Below are positions 1-13,821 of a stretch of DNA of 17,875 nucleotides, one piece after another. The stretch lies in the IMG/VR virus record IMGVR_UViG_2617271049_000014; one strand, 5' to 3'. Every line of letters begins with the position of its first letter. The first letter of the stretch is position 1. The DNA comes from a virus. Taxonomy: Duplodnaviria > Heunggongvirae > Uroviricota > Caudoviricetes. The notes under the pieces were generated by a model. That model did no database searches. It saw only the letters and a list, made by a program, of their open reading frames with translations, and was not told the DNA's origin. The position numbers and the translations under genes were made by a program.

Positions 1-1236
1 CTACGATAACCGCGCATTCAACATGGCTACCTGTTCGTCGTTCATGTCATCAATCCACATACCGTAAATTTCATACACCATCTGCGCAGTTTCATGCCCC
101 ATCTGGCTGGCTATAAACGCCGGGTTCGCTCCTGCCGTCAACAGCCAGCAGGCAAAAGTATGCCGCGTATGGTACGGATTACGGCGGCGAATACCAGCAC
201 GTTTTACTGCTGCATTCCATCTCGCACCCAAACTGCTTACCGAGTAATAAGGTTTCTGTTTTCCGTTACACACTCTGGGCATGAAAACAAAATGCAGTTT
301 TTGCTTTTCGGTTCTGCCGTACTCCCGATGATAAAAAGTGATTTCGCTTTTGCGATGATGCCCGGTCAGTTTGTATTGCTCCTTCAGTGCTTCAAGAGCA
401 GGCTGCAGTAGTGTTACCGTCCGGATCCCCGCATTTGTTTTTGGGGGACCGAACATATCCAGTATCGTCAGGTTTCTTCTGACATTCACAACTCCCTTCT
501 CGAAATCCACATCCTCCCACGCCAGAGCAGCCAGTTCCCCGTGACGAAGCCCGGAGTATACGGCAAATTTCCACAAGTTCTGGCTCTGTCCTTTTTCACT
601 TTCCATTAATGCATTGAATTCTGTTTTAGATAACGGGTCAGGCTTTATTCTGTTTCTCTGTAATTTCTTTACTCCTTCAAATGGTTTGGTTGATATAAAT
701 CCCGACTGATACGCAAAACGTAACAACGAACAGAGCAGGGCGATATAGTTATCAACTGTGCGCACGGTTCTTCCTTTTTTGTTGGATCTTGGATTATCCA
801 GGTAAAGCGTTTCTCCATGCAGCAGTTCATTCCGGTAGTTTAAGATATCGCTATAACGAATATGCGATATCGGAGTACTCTCACAAATTATTATCCTGAG
901 TGTTTTTAATTGTGATTTCGTTTTCTTCATTGTGTTTGTTGTTAACTCTGTTTCTTTAATTTTTGTCCAGATATCACAAAGCTCCCCAAACGTTTTTATG
1001 ACCCTCGTTGTCACCATTTTTGCCCCAGTGCTGGACTAGGGAAAACGTCTTAAATACTCAAACTCACCGGAATTGATTTCATGAACTATCAACGCTCTTA
1101 AATTCCCGGCTTTTTTAATGTTACTGTTAGTAACCTCCCAGCCTTTCAATGTTTCCCGACATCGTTTTCCTCGAAACATGAACCAGATGCGAATGTATTT
1201 ACCTCGAATCTCGACACCTGTTGGTAATTTAGACAT
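1..1236 (-). pseudogene. intR: Tyrosine-recombinase prophage integrase (Rac IntR-type) interrupted by an in-frame TAG at 1036-1038; fragments 1..1017 (338 aa, core and catalytic domains) and 1039..1236 (66 aa, N-terminal arm-binding domain)
   Basis: ORFs 1..1017 and 1036..1236 are in the same minus-strand frame, separated only by codon 1036-1038 (plus cta = TAG on the coding strand). The read-through sequence is ...RRFP*SSTGAKMVTT.... The catalytic region shows tyrosine-recombinase motifs (HTRHTFACWLLTAGANPAFIASQMGHE). The combined span is 412 codons, matching the 411 aa I recall for K-12 IntR. ATG at 1234-1236. Confidence 0.8.
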
Positions 1237-1237
1237 A

Positions 1238-1453
1238 TCATGAGTCTTTGATAAACTGATTTATCTTTGGATAGTTATACCAGATAATCCCTCGCTTACT
1301 GTCTGGCTTCCCTAAAGGAGATACTCGTTTGAAGTGGAAGCCTTCCACCCAACAGTTCTGGCGGTATGCTTCAATTTGTCTGGCCCCCAGACCAGTGCGA
1401 AGCATCAGGCCGTATTCAACCATCCACTCTTCATTAAAGATTACTTGTGCCAT
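1238..1453 (-). CDS. ydaQ: Excisionase-like small protein (YdaQ/XisR-like), 71 aa from the ATG at 1451-1453
   Basis: Small ORF immediately upstream of int on the same strand. The track ORF begins at a TTG (1475-1477); the first ATG gives [10 protein letters not shown]..., 71 aa. Stop at 1238-1240 lies 1 nt from the int start. Confidence 0.6.
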
Positions 1454-1552
1454 CGCATCACCTCTGGCAGGCGCCAATGTTAGACTTAAATTGACGCCCG
1501 ATGTTGATTATTAATAATCAGCTATGAAGTTTTAATTTGAATACAATGCAAT

Positions 1553-1753
1553 TCACGAGGACTGAAGTTTCTCGCAATTAAAATTTATCAGTTTTACTTT
1601 CTGCTCTCTGGAAACGCCTGCTTCTTTTTTACCTGAGAGCATTTTTTCGCATTCTGATTTCGTTAGTTTAGATTTTGAATATCTTGTCCAGTTAGTAGGA
1701 GTGCCACCTTCCTTTTCAATAGTGGCGGTAATTTTATACATGAACACCTCCAT
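1553..1753 (-). CDS. ydaC: YdaC-like small prophage protein (DUF1187-like); start ambiguous (ATG 1751-1753 gives 66 aa, ATG 1811-1813 gives 86 aa)
   Basis: ORF 1553..1813 on the minus strand. The internal ATG at 1751-1753 (MEVFMYKITATIEK...) is preceded by GGAA and clears the ralR reading frame better; the upstream ATG has no RBS. Confidence 0.5.
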   Translation of the reverse strand: MEVFMYKITATIEKEGGTPTNWTRYSKSKLTKSECEKMLSGKKEAGVSREQKVKLINFNCEKLQSS

Positions 1754-1928
1754 TATTATTTCCAGTGGTTCGTTTATTTCATCGTTCGAGTGCTTCTTTT
1801 TCACTTCCACCATAACCGGTTCGGGATTCGCATCCGTTACACTTCGCTCGGTAATATCCTGAAATGGCTTTCACCGTTACTGATGGACAACCACAAAATG
1901 GACATGGTTTAACATTGTCATATCTCAT
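1734..1928 (-). pseudogene. ralR: Restriction-alleviation protein RalR/Lar with a premature TGA at 1779-1781 (codon 50 from the MRYD start); predicted truncated product 49 aa instead of 64 aa
   Basis: Minus-strand translation from ATG 1926-1928 gives MRYDNVKPCPFCGCPSVTVKAISGYYRAKCNGCESRTGYGGSEKEALER, then TGA, then in-frame NKRTTGNNNGGVHV and TAA at 1734-1736. The read-through is exactly 64 codons and matches my recollection of Lar (CPFCGC...CNGC zinc-ribbon-like motif). Below the 60 aa ORF-track cutoff; found by manual translation. Confidence 0.6.
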
Positions 1929-1983
1929 AATTTTTCTCATAAAAATATTTCAAGTTGGCGGTGCATTACACCGCCAGGCTGAA

Positions 1984-2793
1984 TTATTCCTCTGAATTAT
2001 CGATTACACTGTATTCCCCGGTTAATACAGAGGAATCTGCAGGATCGATTGTCAGTGGTTCCTTTTCATCCATTGATACTGCACGCTGGATCTCAATTGA
2101 TACGGGCAGATATTTGAACAGGCGACGAATAGCCGTTTTCTTTGCCATTTCTTCCCAGTGAGTTACCCACGGCCCGTTATTACCAGCTTTACTCTGGCTG
2201 CGCACCAGCTCAATCTGTTTGCGCGTCATAACTTCAAACTGAGTACCTCCGTCTTTCAGTCTTGCGACAGCATAGACGTGGGTAACAGGGGCATCTTCGT
2301 TTTCTCCTGGGCGGTGTATTAACTTTTCATCAAGGCCAAATTCGAAATTAAACTCGTCACCTTCACGGACAACACGGGCTGACAGGCTGGCGATTTGACC
2401 TGAACGGCGAGCCAGATCAATCATGCCGCGATAGCCAATGATTAGCTGAACGTTTTTTTTACCGCTCTTTTCGTTTTTATTACCAAAAGGCAGTAAATAT
2501 GCATGACCGAGGGCGCTACCGGGCTCAAGTCCGAGCTGTGAACACTGTACGATTGCACTGACAAAACTCATAGTGTCACAGTTTCCTAACGCCGGAACTT
2601 TACGAATTTCTGTGGTGGCGATACGGATCATACGTTCAGCCGTCATATGGCGTGGAAGAGCTGCTGCCAGTTGCTCTTTCATTGATGGCTGGTTAATAAA
2701 ACTAATCACGTCGTTATTTTTAATTGCTGCTGGTGCACGGTTTCCCTGAGTTTTTTGCAGATCGGCTTTTGCGATTGGTGGTTGCTTAGTCAT
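1984..2793 (-). CDS. recT: RecT recombinase (single-strand annealing protein), 269 aa
   Basis: Translation from ATG 2791-2793 ([28 protein letters not shown]...) matches RecT as I recall it. RBS AAGGAA upstream. The start overlaps the recE stop (2786-2788) by 8 nt. Confidence 0.9.
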
Positions 2794-5386
2794 TTGCATA
2801 TTCCTTAGCCCAGCGGGGCAGTGATAACGTCTTAATAGCTGGCCATTCATCGGTATTGAGGCAGTCAGCCAGGGTTCGCAGATTGCGGTGATATTCCAGC
2901 TGACCTGCCAGTTTTGCTTCTTCGCCCATCATGAAAATTTCAACCGGATAACGTCCGCATTCAATAGTTGTGCTGGCAACCAGAAAAACGAAAGTTGGCT
3001 GCACTCCAAACTGTGCTTCATAACCGTCACTGTAGAATGCATCCTGAACGTGATAGCGGTAGTCGTAATAAGCGGTTTTGAATCGTTGAATATCCGCCGT
3101 AGTTTTCACGTCCATGATCCAGTGAAATTCAGGGATAATTTTGTCCGGACGGCACCGACACAAAATTGCTGTTTCAGGATCTTCCCAGTAAATTGATGAT
3201 TCAGCGTGTCCGGCGCTTTCAACAAGCCATTGCCCCAGCGGCAAAGCCATAACGCTCTGATACATGAGTTCAATTTTCCGGCCTTCTTCGGCAGTGATAA
3301 CCGTTTTTCCTGTGCTTGCGCATTCCCTCAGAAACGCTTTCTCTTCTTCTTTTCCGGAGTTTGTCCGGCGGTTAAATTCAGGTGCTACGATAAAGCGGTT
3401 ACTGAATTCTTCCGGCTCAAGTACCCGGCAGTGGAAAGCGGTTCCTAAATCGAGCGTTTTTGTCTTTGTGGTGTCCACGGGGGCATTTTTACGCCACAAA
3501 TACAGTGCCGGAGTATCAGCAATGTCATCGAGCTGAGACTTACTGACACCGGGACCCGCGTGGTAATTCTCATTCGAAATTCCGTAATAAATACCTGGCT
3601 CTATGTCTTCTACGATTACGGGATCTGCGACTTCGCCAGTTTCATCACTGCAATCGCGATGCGGATCGCTGCCAGCATTCTCATTGTGCGGATGTTCAGC
3701 GCCTTCCATTTCCTCCGGATCATTTTCCTTAGCTTCAACCTGACTCTCTTCATCGAATGTTTCCTGGTATGTTGCGTCGCCCATCACCGCACCACAGTCA
3801 GGGCAGTTATCCCCGCCAGTCTGGCCGCAGGCATTGCAGGCTATTTCCGGTTCCTGTTGCACTACTGGCTCAGGTTGATTCATATCCGGGCTGGTTTTTT
3901 CCGTTTCTGGCTGGTTCTGGTACACACAATCGCGAGTCTGGATCCCCTTTACCCATTTCGGATCGTTCGGGTCGCTAATTCCGTCAACAAATTCACCACG
4001 TGATGCAGCAAGCAATTTATCGGCATCGACAGGATTTTTTGATGGAATGTTTTTCCGGGCTTCATGGAGTTCTGCCCGCAGTTCCTGATATTTCGCATCA
4101 ACAGAATTTACCTGTGACTGAGCATCCAGCGGCTGCGTGTCCTGATGATGTTCAGTTGCGTCCGGTTCCATTGTTTCAGCCTCTCCCTGTTCAACTGCCG
4201 TTGTTCCAGATGGTTGCGGTTTTTCTTCATCATCCTGTTTTCCTTCTTCTGTTACTCGCTGCGGCATCGGGGCAGAGGAGCGACCGCAGGCAATATCCAC
4301 GATTTCCGGATCAGGGTTGGCATGATCGGTTTCAGTCAGTACTTTGTTCAGATATTCAGTGACGTGCGCGGGGATGACCTCGATCCCAATTGGTGCTTCT
4401 TTTACGGACGCAACCACGATGGCGCGGGAATAATCCAGCCCGCCAGGCATGGTGATGAATTTGTCGCGGAAAACAGAAAAGGGCGGTTTATTTTCAGCGA
4501 TAATTTCCTCAATGCGTTTAGCGTGTGCCGGATGAAGGTTATAGATGTCCAGATCCATTGAACGGGCCAGTACGCCAGTGGCTACGTCCCGCGCCAGTGA
4601 CGTCAGATCGTGTACGAAACCTTCGCCGCGATCGGTGAGGTTTCCGCCGCCAGCATTAGCACCGGAAGCCGTGCGAGTGATGTGTGAAACACGATTACCC
4701 TTCATCCACTCTTTTGTCAGCAGTCCTCGATCGGTGTAGTCAGCGTTCAGGTATGCTTCGAAAAAAGCAGTTATCAGTCCCAGGTTTGAATTACCAGGAT
4801 TAGGGAAAACTTTGTCAGTGTCACGAACCAGTTTGTGGAGTTCGCGAATTTCCAGCGGGTCGAGCAGGCTGGTTTTGTGGGAAACAGCCAGGGCAGTAAC
4901 AGCCGGTAGTTCTTCAGCCCGAGCAATGTGTAATGCCTGGAGTCCGTCGCGTGAAACGTGCGTTACCGGTTTTTCGCTGCCGTGTTGAGCAAGCCAACGA
5001 ATGGGCAGTTCCTGGCCAGAAATTGGGAGTAGCATATTCTCCTCAATCTCAGTCATGTCTTCGCCGTTGACGTTGGTATTGCCTTGATAGTGAGCGTTGT
5101 CTGGTGCTGCTCCCGGTTTTAGTTCCCATGTCATGGAGTCTTTGCTGAGTTGATAGCGTTCACTCCAGGTAAAATCGATCTCACCTTCAGCGGGCAGGTC
5201 ATTAACGACAGGAAAATTCGTGGCAACAGCTTTAAAATAGCTGCTCAGTTTTTTACCTGACTTAACGATCAGGTAGTCCAGAGTGGCACAGGTCGATTCA
5301 AAATCGTTGCTTGCCCACAGGACGACGTCAGGTTCACCGGATGATTTTTTCGCTTTCCGTAACAGGAAGAGTGGTTTTGTGCTCAT
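2786..5386 (-). CDS. recE: Exodeoxyribonuclease VIII (RecE), 866 aa
   Basis: 866 aa ORF from ATG 5384-5386. Acidic, low-complexity N-terminal half and C-terminal nuclease domain; length and sequence consistent with Rac RecE. Coupled to recT. Confidence 0.9.
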
Positions 5387-5457
5387 TGTTTTTTAACCTC
5401 AACTCAGATTAAAATTCGTTTTGTTCAGTGAATGATCTTGCCGGATACACACTGTTC

Positions 5458-5482
5458 ATAGCCTGCGCCATACGCAGGCTAT
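5458..5482. other. Perfect inverted repeat (10 bp stem ATAGCCTGCG / CGCAGGCTAT, 5 nt loop) in the racC-recE intergenic region
   Basis: Read directly: atagcctgcg-ccata-cgcaggctat at 5458-5482, about 5 nt downstream of the racC stop (5488-5490) and about 75 nt upstream of the recE start. The minus-strand RNA has no U-tract after the stem. Confidence 0.5.
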
Positions 5483-5487
5483 TTCTT

Positions 5488-5763
5488 TCAGATTTCACCT
5501 TTTAATTTCATTGCAATTAGAGTTGCCAGAAATTCGGCTTTTTTTTCTGCGGGCAGATTCTTTCCGATATGCACCAGGCACATTTTTTTGACACCTTCAT
5601 CAAGTGTTTTTACGTTGCCTGATGGACCATCGATATCAACCACAGTGAATGGGGTTTCTTTATTTTCTGTTTTAATTACGTAGCCAATGCGCTTTCCTTC
5701 CAGATTCACCTCGTGAACAATGTCATCGGTAGTTACAACAGTGGCTTCATAATTGGTAATCAT
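5488..5763 (-). CDS. racC: RacC, small prophage protein, 91 aa
   Basis: ATG at 5761-5763 preceded by a strong RBS (AAGGAGAAAAAC-ATG). Product MITNYEATVVTTDDIVHEVNLEGKRIGYVIK.... The track ORF extends to an upstream ATG at 5811 that lacks an RBS. Confidence 0.8.
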   Translation of the reverse strand: MITNYEATVVTTDDIVHEVNLEGKRIGYVIKTENKETPFTVVDIDGPSGNVKTLDEGVKKMCLVHIGKNLPAEKKAEFLATLIAMKLKGEI

Positions 5764-5837
5764 GTTTTTCTCCTTAATTAAGGTTGAGCGAATACCTGCC
5801 ATTTCTGGCATAAATTCAGTTTCGAATAGTCAATTAA

Positions 5838-6008
5838 TTAAAGTTCATGTGCCATCTGGTCTTTTTCGGCACAAGCTTCACTGCAATATTTTCTCGGTTC
5901 GTCTTTTGATAAAATCCCGTGCATGAAGTGAAGCATTCTTTCAATAGCTTTGCTTTCTTCAACGTCTTTTTTGCAAAGGTGGTAAGCACATTTTATTTTC
6001 TTAGTCAT
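5838..6008 (-). CDS. ydaE: YdaE-like small Cys-rich (zinc-binding type) protein, 56 aa
   Basis: Manual translation from ATG 6006-6008: [56 protein letters not shown], stop TAA at 5838-5840. The start overlaps the kilR stop (ATGA). Below the ORF-track size cutoff. Confidence 0.7.
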   Translation of the reverse strand: MTKKIKCAYHLCKKDVEESKAIERMLHFMHGILSKDEPRKYCSEACAEKDQMAHEL

Positions 6009-6229
6009 CACCATGACTCCGCCTTTACAGGTAAACCATCACGACCGAGGAAGACTTTAATCATGCGGTCAGTAATGCATGTTTTTGTGGTCAGGTTACG
6101 AATATATAGTTTTCGCTTTTTAATATTGTTTGCCGAGGCAATATATGTCCGGCCTTCATGAAGAACATAATCGCCAGGAGTCACACACTGACGTGGTATT
6201 TCATCAGTTCCGAAGTGATGTGCAATCAT
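6008..6229 (-). CDS. kilR: KilR, FtsZ-targeting cell-division inhibitor of Rac, 73 aa
   Basis: ATG 6227-6229 with GGAG RBS. Product [46 protein letters not shown]... matches KilR as I recall it. The track ORF starts 4 codons further upstream. Confidence 0.8.
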
Positions 6230-6670
6230 AATTATCTCCATTTTTACAAATGAACTTTGTTGATGCGGTGCCTGGTGCCTCCAGGTGACTGCAACCAGTT
6301 AACAATTACAGTCGGCTTTCCCACCCAAACCAATAAGGACTAACATGACTTTTAACTGTGCCACGTGCGCTTAGCCGCATTCACCGCATCACAAAATTCA
6401 CTTTAAAAAGGGCGGACATCAGCCGAACTTCAAGAAAAAAACTGATGCCGCCAGGACTACACACAGCAATGTCGTTATTTACAACCGGAGGCGCACTCCC
6501 ACCATTTAAATTTAACAGACAAGACCGACTCTTTATGGATATCGGAAATGCGCCTTCGTGTTGTGCCCGGTTTTATTTCACCACCTCCGGGCTTCGGTGG
6601 TCTCGGCTATACCCCTACAGCGAGAGCTTGTGTTAACATTTCAATACCCTTACAGTTGAGAGTTATTGAT

Positions 6671-7159
6671 ATGTTGGATGTATTTACTCCATTGTTGAAA
6701 CTTTTTGCTAACGAGCCACTCGAAATACTTATGTATACGATTATCATTTTTGGTCTCACTCTCTGGCTGATACCGAAAGAGTTTACTGTCGCATTCAATG
6801 CTTATACTGAAATACCTTGGCTCTTTCAGATTATCGTTTTTGCCTTTTCTTTCGTGGTCGCCATTTCCTTCTCAAGATTGCGAGCACATATTCAAAAGCA
6901 TTATTCATTACTACCAGAGCAACGAGTATTGCTTCGTTTATCTGAGAAAGAAATCGCTGTATTTAAAGATTTCCTTAAAACAGGAAATCTTATTATCACT
7001 TCTCCTTGCCGTAACCCGGTTATGAAAAAATTAGAACGGAAGGGCATCATTCAACATCAGAGTGATAGCGCAAACTGTTCTTATTATCTCGTCACCGAAA
7101 AATACTCCCATTTTATGAAGTTATTCTGGAACAGCAGGAGTAGACGTTTTAATCGTTAG
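6671..7159 (+). CDS. sieB: Superinfection-exclusion protein SieB (membrane protein), 162 aa
   Basis: ATG 6671 (MLDVFTPLLKLFANEPLEILMYTIIIFGLTLWLIPKEF...) with two hydrophobic segments and SieB-like length. The track ORF start at 6548 is an unsupported upstream extension. Confidence 0.8.
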   Translation: MLDVFTPLLKLFANEPLEILMYTIIIFGLTLWLIPKEFTVAFNAYTEIPWLFQIIVFAFSFVVAISFSRLRAHIQKHYSLLPEQRVLLRLSEKEIAVFKDFLKTGNLIITSPCRNPVMKKLERKGIIQHQSDSANCSYYLVTEKYSHFMKLFWNSRSRRFNR

Positions 7160-7311
7160 CTTACTGTGTGCTTCTCCAACCATCGGCGCGCACCAGTTTC
7201 GGTTTTAAATGTTTTGCTTTTGGTATACGTCATGGCAGTGAACGTTCCATCCTGGTTGGGGAACACGCCGCACACCAGGGATTCGTTGTTGCCGAGGTCG
7301 ATTTTTTGCAT
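7156..7311 (-). CDS. ydaF: YdaF-like small prophage protein, 51 aa
   Basis: Manual translation from ATG 7309-7311: MQKIDLGNNESLVCGVFPNQDGTFTAMTYTKSKTFKTETGARRWLEKHTVS, stop TAA at 7156-7158. Convergent 4-nt overlap with the sieB stop. The 51 aa length matches what I recall for K-12 ydaF. Below the ORF-track cutoff. Confidence 0.55.
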   Translation of the reverse strand: MQKIDLGNNESLVCGVFPNQDGTFTAMTYTKSKTFKTETGARRWLEKHTVS

Positions 7312-7321
7312 TTTGCGAATC

Positions 7322-7456
7322 TCACATCTTGTTGCTGTGTATAGCGACTTCTGCCTGCCAGAGATCCCAGTCGTTGCTGCGTAAAGCCTGCACAGCCTGG
7401 TTGTAAGTGATACCGCAACAATCCATCAAATACTGAACTACTTCGTAATGCACCAT
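7322..7456 (-). CDS. ydaG: YdaG-like small prophage protein, 44 aa
   Basis: ATG 7454-7456 preceded by GGGGAGAGATAAG. Product MVHYEVVQYLMDCCGITYNQAVQALRSNDWDLWQAEVAIHSNKM. The track ORF begins at an upstream GTG. First gene downstream of the putative leftward promoter. Confidence 0.6.
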   Translation of the reverse strand: MVHYEVVQYLMDCCGITYNQAVQALRSNDWDLWQAEVAIHSNKM

Positions 7457-7624
7457 CTTATCTCTCCCCTTAACGCCGGGTGGCGGAACTGAAACCTGCT
7501 GCACTGCAAAATCTGAACCCTGCCGTCATGTTCATACGCCTCGGGCTGGCTACTTAACCCCTGACCACTGCCTGGTAACTCGAAGTATTGCCCTGCGTTC
7601 TGTGGGGCGGGGTGGGTTGGTAGG

Positions 7625-7680
7625 TATATAATGTACTTTGTGTTCATTGATGTAAAGTACTTTAAGTACATTTTGTGTGT
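7625..7680 (-). promoter_or_regulatory. Putative leftward early promoter (pL-like) with overlapping operator repeats (oL-like)
   Basis: On the minus strand: -35 TTTACA (plus 7651-7656), 17-nt spacer, -10 CATTAT (plus 7628-7633). ATGTACTT at 7631-7638, the 10-bp palindrome AAAGTACTTT at 7655-7664 and AAGTACAT at 7665-7672 overlap the -35 and -10 elements. Confidence 0.45.
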
Positions 7681-7746
7681 AAAAAAATGAGATGGGATAA
7701 AGTGAAGCACAAACCCGGAGGGGGACGCTACCGGATTTATGCTGGT

Positions 7747-8166
7747 TTAAGAGGCTTTTTGTTTTTTCTTTCGTGCTAGCTCTTCGTAAATTGCATTGTA
7801 CTTCTGTTTTTTCTCCTCAAGAGTTTTTAAAAGTTCATCTGTCTCACTGTCAGGGAGCTCGTCCAGAAGGTCAATGATGATTTTTTGTCTTGGATTTAAC
7901 TCCTGATAGAAACGTACCTGTCCACTTTCTTCTGTATCCTCTCCCAAAAGATAGGTTGGTGTTGTTCCAATGAGTGTTGCTAATTCCCTTAATTTCTCTC
8001 GGCGAGGAATTGTTTCGCCATTAAACCATTTGCTAACCGCTTTTGGTGTTAATTTCATTCGACGGGCAATTTCTGCCTGCCTTCCATGTTGTTCATAACC
8101 AGCGTTTTCACAGGCTAGCGCAAGCCTACTGGCGAACTCTTTACGCGCTTTATCTTCATGAACCAT
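7747..8166 (-). CDS. racR: Prophage repressor (RacR-like), N-terminal HTH, no LexA-like peptidase domain, 139 aa
   Basis: ATG 8164-8166. HTH-like segment QAEIARRMKLTPKAVSKWFNG. Divergent from the Cro-like gene across an ~80 bp operator region. The C-terminus is charged and coiled-coil-like (ELARKKKQKAS). Confidence 0.7.
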   Translation of the reverse strand: MVHEDKARKEFASRLALACENAGYEQHGRQAEIARRMKLTPKAVSKWFNGETIPRREKLRELATLIGTTPTYLLGEDTEESGQVRFYQELNPRQKIIIDLLDELPDSETDELLKTLEEKKQKYNAIYEELARKKKQKAS

Positions 8167-8245
8167 AAGTTCAATGATATTCGCTCTTGAATGTACTGTC
8201 AGTTCTGTTATAGCATGTACTCAAAGTTCACATTGTGAGGGTGAT
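8167..8245. promoter_or_regulatory. Divergent promoter/operator region (oR-like) between the repressor and the Cro-like gene
   Basis: Rightward -35 TTGAAT (8187-8192) and -10 TATAGC (8209-8214), spacer 16. ATGTACT occurs at 8191-8197 and 8215-8221, overlapping those elements; the same heptamer recurs in the oL-like region. Confidence 0.5.
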
Positions 8246-8500
8246 ATGAACCAGAAAACACTTGAAGATGTAATCAAAACTGTTCGCGTTTCTGTTGTGG
8301 CCGACGTTTGTGGTGTCAGCCAAAGAGCAATCTACAAATGGATGGATAACGGAAAATTGCCTCGCACAGAATATACCGGCGAAACAAATTACGCTGAAAA
8401 AATCGCTCATGCATCAAACGGATTATTTTCTGCTGATGTAATTTTAACTATTGGCAGAAATAAAACTACTACGAAAAAGCTGATGGGAGTTGATTCATGA
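8246..8500 (+). CDS. ydaS: Cro/XRE-like small HTH protein (YdaS-like), 84 aa from the ATG at 8246
   Basis: ATG 8246 preceded by GAGGGTGAT. HTH-like VSQRAIYKWMDNGKLP. The track start at 8174 lies only 8 nt from the racR start, leaving no room for a promoter. Stop overlaps the ydaT start (ATGA). Confidence 0.65.
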   Translation: MNQKTLEDVIKTVRVSVVADVCGVSQRAIYKWMDNGKLPRTEYTGETNYAEKIAHASNGLFSADVILTIGRNKTTTKKLMGVDS

Positions 8501-12836: not shown

Positions 12837-12916
12837 TTTCTTACGTATAAACTGCTTCAATTTTGCTATGCTTCGCAAAGCTGTATCGCGAGGCGGATTG
12901 CAGACATGGACATCGT
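12837..12916 (+). promoter_or_regulatory. Candidate late promoter region (PR'-like, with Q-binding element) between the Q-like gene and the first terminator
   Basis: Positional inference. TATAAA at 12846-12851 and TTGCTA at 12863-12868 are present, but I cannot assign a confident -35/-10 pair. Confidence 0.3.
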
Positions 12917-12943
12917 AAAAAAACCGCTTAATGCGGTTTTTTT
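12917..12943 (+). terminator. Rho-independent terminator (tR'-like), potentially bidirectional
   Basis: AAAAAAACCGC-TTAAT-GCGGTTTTTTT: a GC stem flanked by an A7 run upstream and a T7 run downstream. Confidence 0.6.
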
Positions 12944-13263
12944 ACGTCAGGAAAGCAGGGGAGAATGCTGCTAGTTGGGCAACTGGTCTTTCTGCTCCAA
13001 ATTATAACAGAGACCAGTTATAGTTTCGGTGCTGTGTTTTTTTTACAATATTGTGATAACACATTGCTGGCGGGAGTTTTGATATTTCTTGGCAGGGGCT
13101 GATGATGCGTTATCCTGATGTCGTCAACTCATATAAAATGAGATGAGAGATCATTGCAGGGTGGTTTGTAATTCGCTGTTTAGCGGGACAATATGTTGTC
13201 TGATACAAGACACCCGACGCCTCAGATTACTATAATAAAGACGAAGCATCCTTTGTATTGACC

Positions 13264-13289: not shown

Positions 13290-13821
13290 GGGCTGGTTTA
13301 TTGTATGCCAAATGATTATTAAAAAGGTTGTGTTAATAACAAAATCCGAAATAATATGCCTGCATATTTTTATCTTGCTTATATTCTGCATATTGTGCAT
13401 AGCAGGCTCATCCCTGCAATCAAAACTGTATGATGAGTATTTTTTGTTTTCCTTTTTTCCAGTCATCTGATGATGACCTGCTTCTTTTTAATCCGGATCG
13501 ACATCAGTTTTTTAAGATAATTCCTGCGAGTTATATGCATAAATGCCACAAACTCCGCATTTTATGTGGTTGGGAGTTGCCGGGCGCGCAGTGAGTTTGC
13601 TAAGAAAACTCCTGCATGGTGAATCCCCCTGTGCGGTGGGGTGATACCATTAACCTTTTCTGTCGCCGACAGGTATCACGAACATTTTGTTCACCGGGAG
13701 GCACCCGGCACCATGCACTTCAATAGATTCTCTCCACATTATGGATATTCTTTCAGAATATCCCACGCAGACTTTGTGTAAATGTTAACAAATGTGCGTT
13801 TTATTTGATCTGATTCGCTGT

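Follow-up and report, generated by a model that had tools for sequence, protein, structure and literature searches.

The perfect inverted repeat at 5458-5482 of the window (by which we mean the whole stretch of 17,875 nt analysed here), lying between racC and recE, is by itself most probably an ordinary intrinsic (Rho-independent) terminator, and the RNA 3′ end that falls just beyond it, at 5486 on the + strand, is an abundant one. We have little doubt that the hairpin terminates a + strand RNA, and we put at roughly 65% the probability that what it terminates, in the intrinsic manner, is a discrete, short cis-antisense RNA running against the leftward operon.

In E. coli K-12 the recET genes of Rac form the classical silent pathway of recombination, and one of the two recombineering systems derives from them; the silence is usually explained solely by the leftward prophage promoter being repressed. 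A second layer of control would be added by an abundant antisense RNA with its promoter over the start of recE, and the best-annotated bacterial genome would gain a small RNA gene. If the RNA is without effect, the finding amounts to an ordinary terminator on the strand that the first-pass annotation of this DNA had not considered.

The hairpin and the RNA end beside it

The features to which the argument refers are the following, the promoter and the RNA body being predictions.

2786-5386, − strand: recE (exonuclease VIII), downstream in the leftward operon, and the gene on which any cis effect would presumably act.
5384-5422, − strand: recE leader, with the start codon at 5384-5386, the Shine-Dalgarno sequence GAGG at 5396-5399 and a local 9-bp hairpin.
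5386-5415, + strand: predicted sigma-70 promoter, with −35 TTGTTT at 5386-5391, an 18-bp spacer and −10 TAAAAT at 5410-5415.
5423-5486, + strand: predicted antisense RNA of 64 nt, 5′-GUUCAGUGAAUGAUCUUGCCGGAUACACACUGUUCAUAGCCUGCGCCAUACGCAGGCUAUUUCU-3′, its 3′ end mapped by Term-seq and its 5′ end deduced from the promoter.
5423-5457, + strand: predicted 5′ part of this RNA with stem-loop 1 (CAGUG...CACUG and an inner helix), from the fold, with equivalents in the B, B′ and B″ alleles.
5458-5482, + strand: hairpin taken as the terminator of the antisense RNA, from the repeat search, the terminator scan and the fold; kept across alleles by compensatory and G·U changes.
5483-5490, + strand: U-rich tail TTCTTTCA, extending into the racC stop codon, with the 3′ end at 5486 (...GGCUAUUUCU-3′).
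5488-5763, − strand: racC, the upstream gene of the leftward operon, its stop codon abutting the antisense terminator.

The first-pass annotation had described a perfect hairpin with a 10-bp stem in a gap of about 100 bp, and its coordinates were exact: the arms at 5458-5467 (ATAGCCTGCG) and 5473-5482 (CGCAGGCTAT) are 100% complementary around a 5-nt loop, CCATA, and the spacer measures 101 bp between the recE ATG at 5384-5386 (−) and the racC stop codon at 5488-5490 (−). The hairpin thus stands 5 nt past the racC stop and 72 nt from the recE start codon, without contact to the recE ribosome-binding site. The inverted repeat exceeds chance, the window holding three distinct perfect hairpins with stems of at least 10 bp, as against 0.165 per dinucleotide shuffle of the window (13.5% of such shuffles contain any). 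Folded as RNA, the + strand hairpin has −16.1 kcal/mol (z = −5.9) and its − strand counterpart −17.3 kcal/mol (z = −4.4), and on neither strand was any of 200 shuffles as good.

What tells the strands apart is the sequence 3′ of the stem, which is T-rich on the + strand (TTCTTTCA) and reads GAACAGUG, with no U-tract, on the − strand. The earlier statement, which denied the hairpin a role as canonical intrinsic terminator of the leftward transcript, stands; what it overlooked is the T-rich tail of the + strand. With this tail after the stem, the + strand hairpin is the best terminator-like match in the window, ranking first in a consensus scan (10 pairs, six of them G-C, tail TTCTTTCAGA). It has a G+C-rich stem-loop (6 of 10 pairs G-C, −16.1 kcal/mol), a 3′ U-rich tract on the + strand (UUCUUUCA in allele A, UUUCUUUUUUU in allele B) that the − strand lacks, and, in published Term-seq data from MG1655, 3′ ends in vivo within the U-tract. 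In its G+C-rich 10-bp stem, short loop and U-rich tail it is like canonical intrinsic terminators, from which it differs in that the U-tract of the K-12 type is interrupted (UUCUUUC); that of the B type is longer.

The window is a Rac-type prophage, 98.7% identical to MG1655 over 1-7622, and many K-12 records match its part from 5250 to 5850 with 100% identity; adding 1,412,000 to a window position at the hairpin gives the MG1655 coordinate (a mapping that was checked), and because the sequences are identical the MG1655 data hold for exactly this stretch. A strong + strand 3′ end is placed by Term-seq in MG1655 at 1417486 (Adams et al. 2021, eLife, PMC7815308, supplementary file 1), that is, at 5486 of the window, 4 nt past the stem and 7 nt past the last G-C pair. 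Its mean read count is 185,664 (LB, OD 0.4), and 146,140 in a second sheet, where the same table has 66,698 reads for the sokC end and 6,222 for that of sgrS (PMC7815308). The end is entered three times in a file with three condition sheets, and is classed there as “antisense to racC” only and not discussed (PMC7815308). No further curated 3′ end is listed in the Term-seq set between 1,417,000 and 1,417,699, and a bicyclomycin data set lists no Rho-termination region over the same interval, an absence that is a weak sign. Mapping of 3′ ends across racC-recE, which had been proposed as a check, exists therefore in published form; it does place an end at the hairpin, but the only end so mapped belongs to the + strand.

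According to the list of open reading frames, none on the + strand ends near the hairpin, so that, if a terminator, it closes a non-coding transcript and not a protein gene. A coding reading of the + strand RNA was also tried and rejected, its short open reading frames either overrunning the mapped 3′ end or not being conserved in the B alleles.

A predicted antisense RNA with several alleles

A candidate promoter for this RNA lies at the other end of the spacer, its −35 element overlapping the recE start codon and its spacer including the complement of the recE Shine-Dalgarno sequence. In a position-weight scan it is the best on the + strand within the 650 nt upstream of the terminator, and ranks 49th of about 178,000 placements in the window. 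The match is moderate (8 of 12 consensus positions overall, 3 of 6 in the −35), and because only 8 of 12 positions agree a stricter consensus scan does not list it. The candidate lies 8 nt upstream of the conserved 5′ stem-loop, and a start at G 5423 would give an RNA of 64 nt made of this stem-loop followed directly by the terminator hairpin, with a minimum free energy of −24.9 kcal/mol (z = −4.9). Predicted promoter, RNA body and terminator would then occupy the entire 101-bp spacer, the U-tract running into the racC stop codon. That a discrete RNA of about 64 nt comes from this predicted promoter is, in our judgement, fairly probable.

The RNA would be a prophage cis-antisense small RNA that carries no gene name and has no relative in Rfam, its standing as a promoter-driven regulator being a prediction. 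Overlap with a transcript of the opposite strand, a feature of cis-antisense RNAs, is found here, since racC and recE are co-transcribed over the spacer and derepressed together. Rfam 15 has no family at the hairpin (within 5300-5560 no score exceeds 18.9 bits, where 55 would be required), and the MG1655 RefSeq record, which annotates ralA and kilS in Rac, has nothing at 1417486. The supplements of the Cappable-seq, SMRT-Cappable-seq and Shinhara 2011 studies gave no match near the site. Searches of the available full texts found no paper that prints the RNA sequence, and nothing relevant for racC combined with sRNA, Hfq or antisense; the paper naming KilS does not mention an antisense RNA at racC-recE, nor does the main text of a paper on EHEC prophage small RNAs, and the apparent matches in PMC5493296 were false word matches.

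Two other classes were considered and set aside. As a type I toxin-antitoxin RNA the transcript would face a toxin gene, and the only − strand open reading frame of the spacer has 20 codons (MAQAMNSVYPARSFTEQNEF), is not hydrophobic and has no Shine-Dalgarno sequence; read by eye, it begins in the hairpin loop and is absent from loop-flipped and B-type alleles. A repeat family of the REP kind does not fit a sequence found at a median of one place per genome and with no second copy in the window.

About 280 loci were sampled by means of RacC, the conserved recE leader and an allele-specific word, and their racC-recE spacers are of four types, A (that of K-12), B, B′ and B″. The order of elements is common to all four: a promoter-like TTGTTT-N17-19-TAAAAT, a 5′ stem-loop, a G+C-rich hairpin and a T-run, which in the B types (TTTCTTTTTTT) is longer than in A. 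From the −10 to the T-run the sequence is strongly type-specific, so that the variable cassette begins right past the −10 and stops at the U-tract. Alleles A and B have part of the stem-loop 1 loop in common (UGAAU.A..U.CC.G), and a covariance model built on the B family finds allele A (E = 0.0012). The −10 hexamer is invariant in 106 loci (55 haplotypes) fetched by a word that excludes it, a conservation of the promoter that is inseparable from that of the leader because the recE ribosome-binding site shares the same bases and the whole block is conserved. The cassette occurs in 1836 of 5426 complete E. coli genomes (about one third), O157 strains included. Homologues of RacC were found only in Escherichia and Shigella, with identities of at least 56%, and as the most divergent of them carry the same A or B-type cassettes, they supply no independent distant lineage for comparison.

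Comparison of A with the B types shows 91.4% of cells in the terminator stem paired, as against 17-43% in slid controls, and three pairs of this stem are altered on both sides between alleles (A-U/U-A, G-C/A-U and C-G/U-A). In stem-loop 1, one pair runs from G-C (B) through G·U (locus L007) to A-U (B″), and a U·U mismatch is mended to U-A in B″ and in locus L240. Within the B family covariation is not significant: a single pair is altered in both arms, and the observed value is reached in 75 of 500 shuffles. Such covariation is shallow, its between-allele signal coming from few lineages, and may be taken as supporting the predicted structure rather than proving it.

The one-sided changes in the stems, which leave pairing on one strand only, appear to be more telling than the covariation. 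They give G·U pairs on the + strand at five to six positions and on the − strand at one, the loop-closing pair in locus L123, an asymmetry of about 6:1 (binomial p about 0.06). The common B allele itself has a + strand G·U at the second pair of the terminator stem (pair 42-62), the − strand equivalent being a C·A mismatch. The B-type RNAs fold with −26.8, −25.3 and −30.8 kcal/mol on the + strand against −19.4, −18.5 and −27.7 kcal/mol on the − strand, the former being 3-7 kcal/mol more stable. A comparison of whole-RNA ddG between the strands across variants gave no signal.

The loop of the hairpin (5468-5472) occurs in nature in both orientations, as CCATA or TATGG in allele A loci (L107, L110, L135) and as ACT or AGT in many allele B loci, in a manner resembling inversion of the centre of a palindrome, the stems being unaffected. 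That loops flip and stems stay fits a terminator, where stem and tail alone matter.

Other readings of the hairpin

The reading with which the first-pass annotation began places the hairpin in the leftward racC-recE mRNA, where, by obstructing transcription or translation or by being processed by RNase III, it would help to keep recET silent. On the − strand of allele A it is indeed just as stable (−17.3 kcal/mol), and it follows the racC stop codon by only 5 nt; moreover, the Rac genes induced most strongly upon titration of RacR include, in one transcriptome report, racC but neither recE nor recT, which fits some polarity and leaves room for a partial one at the racC-recE junction. However, an RNA-seq compendium, in its part on this operon, has racC and recE co-transcribed and predicts one operon from kilR to ralR (Tjaden 2023, PMC10392735), and silencing of racR derepresses racC, recE, recT, ralR, xisR and intR jointly (bioRxiv 10.64898/2026.09.06.749655), so that the hairpin can be no strong barrier to leftward transcription. 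The structure, moreover, is 72 nt from the recE start and leaves the ribosome-binding site untouched. RNase III normally needs about two helical turns (about 20 bp) of double-stranded RNA, and the stem of 10-11 bp offers about half of that on either strand. The − strand, in addition, has no U-tract, and natural variants keep pairing on the + strand by G·U and break it on the − strand by A·C, the majority B allele being already mismatched there. A barrier or processing site in the leftward mRNA is thus quite improbable, whilst the junction itself is still a plausible place for the control of recE, with the structure acting on the opposite strand.

Granted a + strand RNA, the hairpin might instead end or protect a long transcript begun within recE, and insulate racC and kilR from pervasive antisense transcription. 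The 5′ end of the short RNA is after all a prediction, and what is mapped could be the 3′ end of a longer transcript or a fragment trimmed back to the hairpin; weaker promoter-like sites do occur upstream on the + strand (e.g., with −10 elements ending at 5238 and 5040), and antisense transcription is frequent in AT-rich, horizontally acquired DNA. Against this, reads at the 3′ end are very numerous for a product of pervasive antisense transcription, the 500 nt upstream contain no listed Rho-termination region and no other listed + strand end, the conserved 5′ stem-loop is preceded at 8 nt by the best promoter candidate, and the variable cassette runs exactly from the −10 to the U-tract; we consider the long transcript unlikely. 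A small RNA acting chiefly in trans, by base-pairing or as a sponge and bound by ProQ or Hfq, with its overlap with the recE leader incidental, would agree with the stem-loop and terminator layout typical of small RNAs, with the long U-tail of the B type, which suits Hfq, with the part of the stem-loop 1 loop common to A and B, and with the neighbouring Rac RNAs RalA and KilS, which act or are proposed to act on other transcripts. Yet the body of the RNA diverges strongly between alleles, as is unusual for a seed-dependent regulator, the K-12 tail UAUUUCU is short for Hfq, and no trans target was found, the sole extra match of at least 12 nt in the window, at 3836, involving the sequestered 3′ arm of the terminator. 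Action mainly in trans is accordingly improbable. The palindrome could, lastly, act as DNA, as a protein site, a cruciform or the boundary of a recombination module, with the RNA end as a by-product, and the perfection of the allele A repeat, the loops that invert as at DNA palindromes and the position of the spacer, where variable recE 5′ ends meet racC alleles in a mosaic, would all be in keeping with this. But the variants tolerate changes of the G·T type that break the symmetry of the DNA and keep RNA pairing on one strand, the stem sequence varies by allele whilst the layout of stem and U-tract stays, and the conserved T-run on one side is left unexplained by a DNA site, all of which makes such a function highly improbable.

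Possible consequences for recE and the surrounding prophage

If the short cis-antisense RNA exists as predicted, it would be convergent with, and antisense to, the kilR-ydaE-racC-recE-recT operon of Rac, and would be made constitutively, whilst the prophage is repressed. On any leftward transcript it would pair perfectly with the recE leader from −37 to −100, and the resulting duplex of about 64 bp may be a substrate for RNase III, whose cleavage would detach recET from racC and leave recET open to decay. Polymerase at the promoter over the recE start region, by occupying it or by firing from it, would also collide with leftward polymerases. Duplex and collision together would lower leaky expression of recET in lysogens and yet not block it upon full derepression. 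An RNase III step, if there is any, could thus act on the duplex between RNA and mRNA rather than on the hairpin itself. With 23 nt between the end of the duplex and the Shine-Dalgarno sequence downstream of it, ribosomes are unlikely to be occluded directly, and any repression must be partial because recE is derepressed when racR is silenced. That the antisense RNA represses recE is a tentative proposal, possible but rather less than even.

A wider reading, of which we are more doubtful still, is that the spacer is a complete, swappable antisense cassette whose constitutive RNA of about 64 nt would set a threshold for recET expression in lysogens independently of the repressor, with at least four alleles that each match their own recE leader only. 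Were this so, the classical silence of the wild-type Rac recET genes would be partly post-transcriptional, as would the requirement for sbcA events of the strong promoter-up kind. (A review gives sbcA only as a synonym of racC and recE.)

As to a translational brake, if there is one, the better candidate is not the hairpin at 5458-5482 but that of the recE leader, which pairs 5391-5399 with 5406-5414 (UUUUAAUCU/AGGUUAAAA) and sequesters most of the Shine-Dalgarno sequence. It is A/U-rich, folds with −6.3 kcal/mol (8 of 200 shuffles are as good), is conserved in all alleles, and coincides on the DNA with the spacer and −10 of the predicted antisense promoter.

In layout and position the predicted RNA resembles the OOP RNA of lambda and the sar RNA of P22. 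OOP is a 77-nt antisense RNA opposite the end of cII, and acts through cleavage by RNase III of its duplex with the cII mRNA. Both it and the Rac RNA are short, come from a constitutive promoter (predicted for Rac) in a lambdoid early region, converge with an early operon, end at an intrinsic terminator and have a gene junction, not a ribosome-binding site, as their complement. They differ in having no sequence similarity and in the operon concerned, which comprises the leftward recombination genes in Rac and the rightward cII-O in lambda; the effect on the target and its dependence on RNase III, moreover, are known for OOP and only proposed for the Rac RNA, the 5′ end of which is predicted. 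The sar RNA of P22, of 68-69 nt, is antisense to the arc-ant intercistronic region. In both cases the antisense gene fills an intercistronic spacer, with its promoter in the start region of the downstream gene and directed against the operon, but sar covers the ribosome-binding site of ant, whereas the predicted Rac RNA would stop 23 nt short of that of recE, only its promoter overlapping it. RalA (RF02694) is likewise a + strand small RNA opposite the same leftward operon of the same prophage; unlike the racC-recE RNA it has 179 nt and an Rfam family and neutralises the toxin RalR, no toxin-like open reading frame lying opposite the former. The retroregulation hairpin sib/tI of lambda is closer to the idea of the first-pass annotation, being a structure in a prophage transcript that controls a gene through processing by RNase III; it is, however, a long imperfect double helix formed in read-through transcripts only, and here the stem has 10-11 bp and the evidence favours the other strand.

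With RalA, KilS and the racC-recE antisense RNA, the leftward operon of Rac would have at least three small RNAs. RalA, the antitoxin small RNA of RalR, matches its Rfam family at 1557-1735 (+) with 225 bits, and KilS, from the 5′ UTR of kilR (Bar et al. 2021), corresponds to about 6405-6505 (−), that is, 1418405-1418502 of MG1655. The only other Rfam family found in the window is STnc100, at 13584-13770 (+), with 86.6 bits. The part at 7623-8490 has no alignment to the racR region of K-12, between flanks that are 98.7-99.3% identical, so that the immunity (repressor) module of the window is another one, and the window is not K-12 itself.

The 5′ end of recE is itself mosaic (L007, L008, L075 and other loci), with two unrelated N-termini, one of which reads M(N/S)TDKQVYPLYYE...; since each of the two occurs with the one conserved leader and with either spacer allele, recombination has its joints immediately at the start codon of recE. 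One locus with a B-type spacer and a kil-ydaE-racC-recE module of the Escherichia type (L096, PP818812.1) is entered as ‘Actinobacillus phage vB_Apl-pPE4’, a stated host that looks doubtful.

Within recE, a 12-nt word made of the 3′ terminator arm and the start of the U-tract (GCAGGCTATTTC) recurs at 3836-3847, where about 0.1 occurrences are expected by chance; the antisense RNA could pair there, by its 3′ end, with the recE mRNA, but the match is compatible with chance. The longest perfect hairpin of the window is a 14-bp palindrome at 12914-12946 (CGTAAAAAAACCGC-TTAAT-GCGGTTTTTTTACG), with A-runs and T-runs on both sides, which resembles a bidirectional terminator. Another perfect 10-bp hairpin, AAGATTTCCT-TAAAAC-AGGAAATCTT, lies at 6966-6991, within the region matching sieB of K-12.
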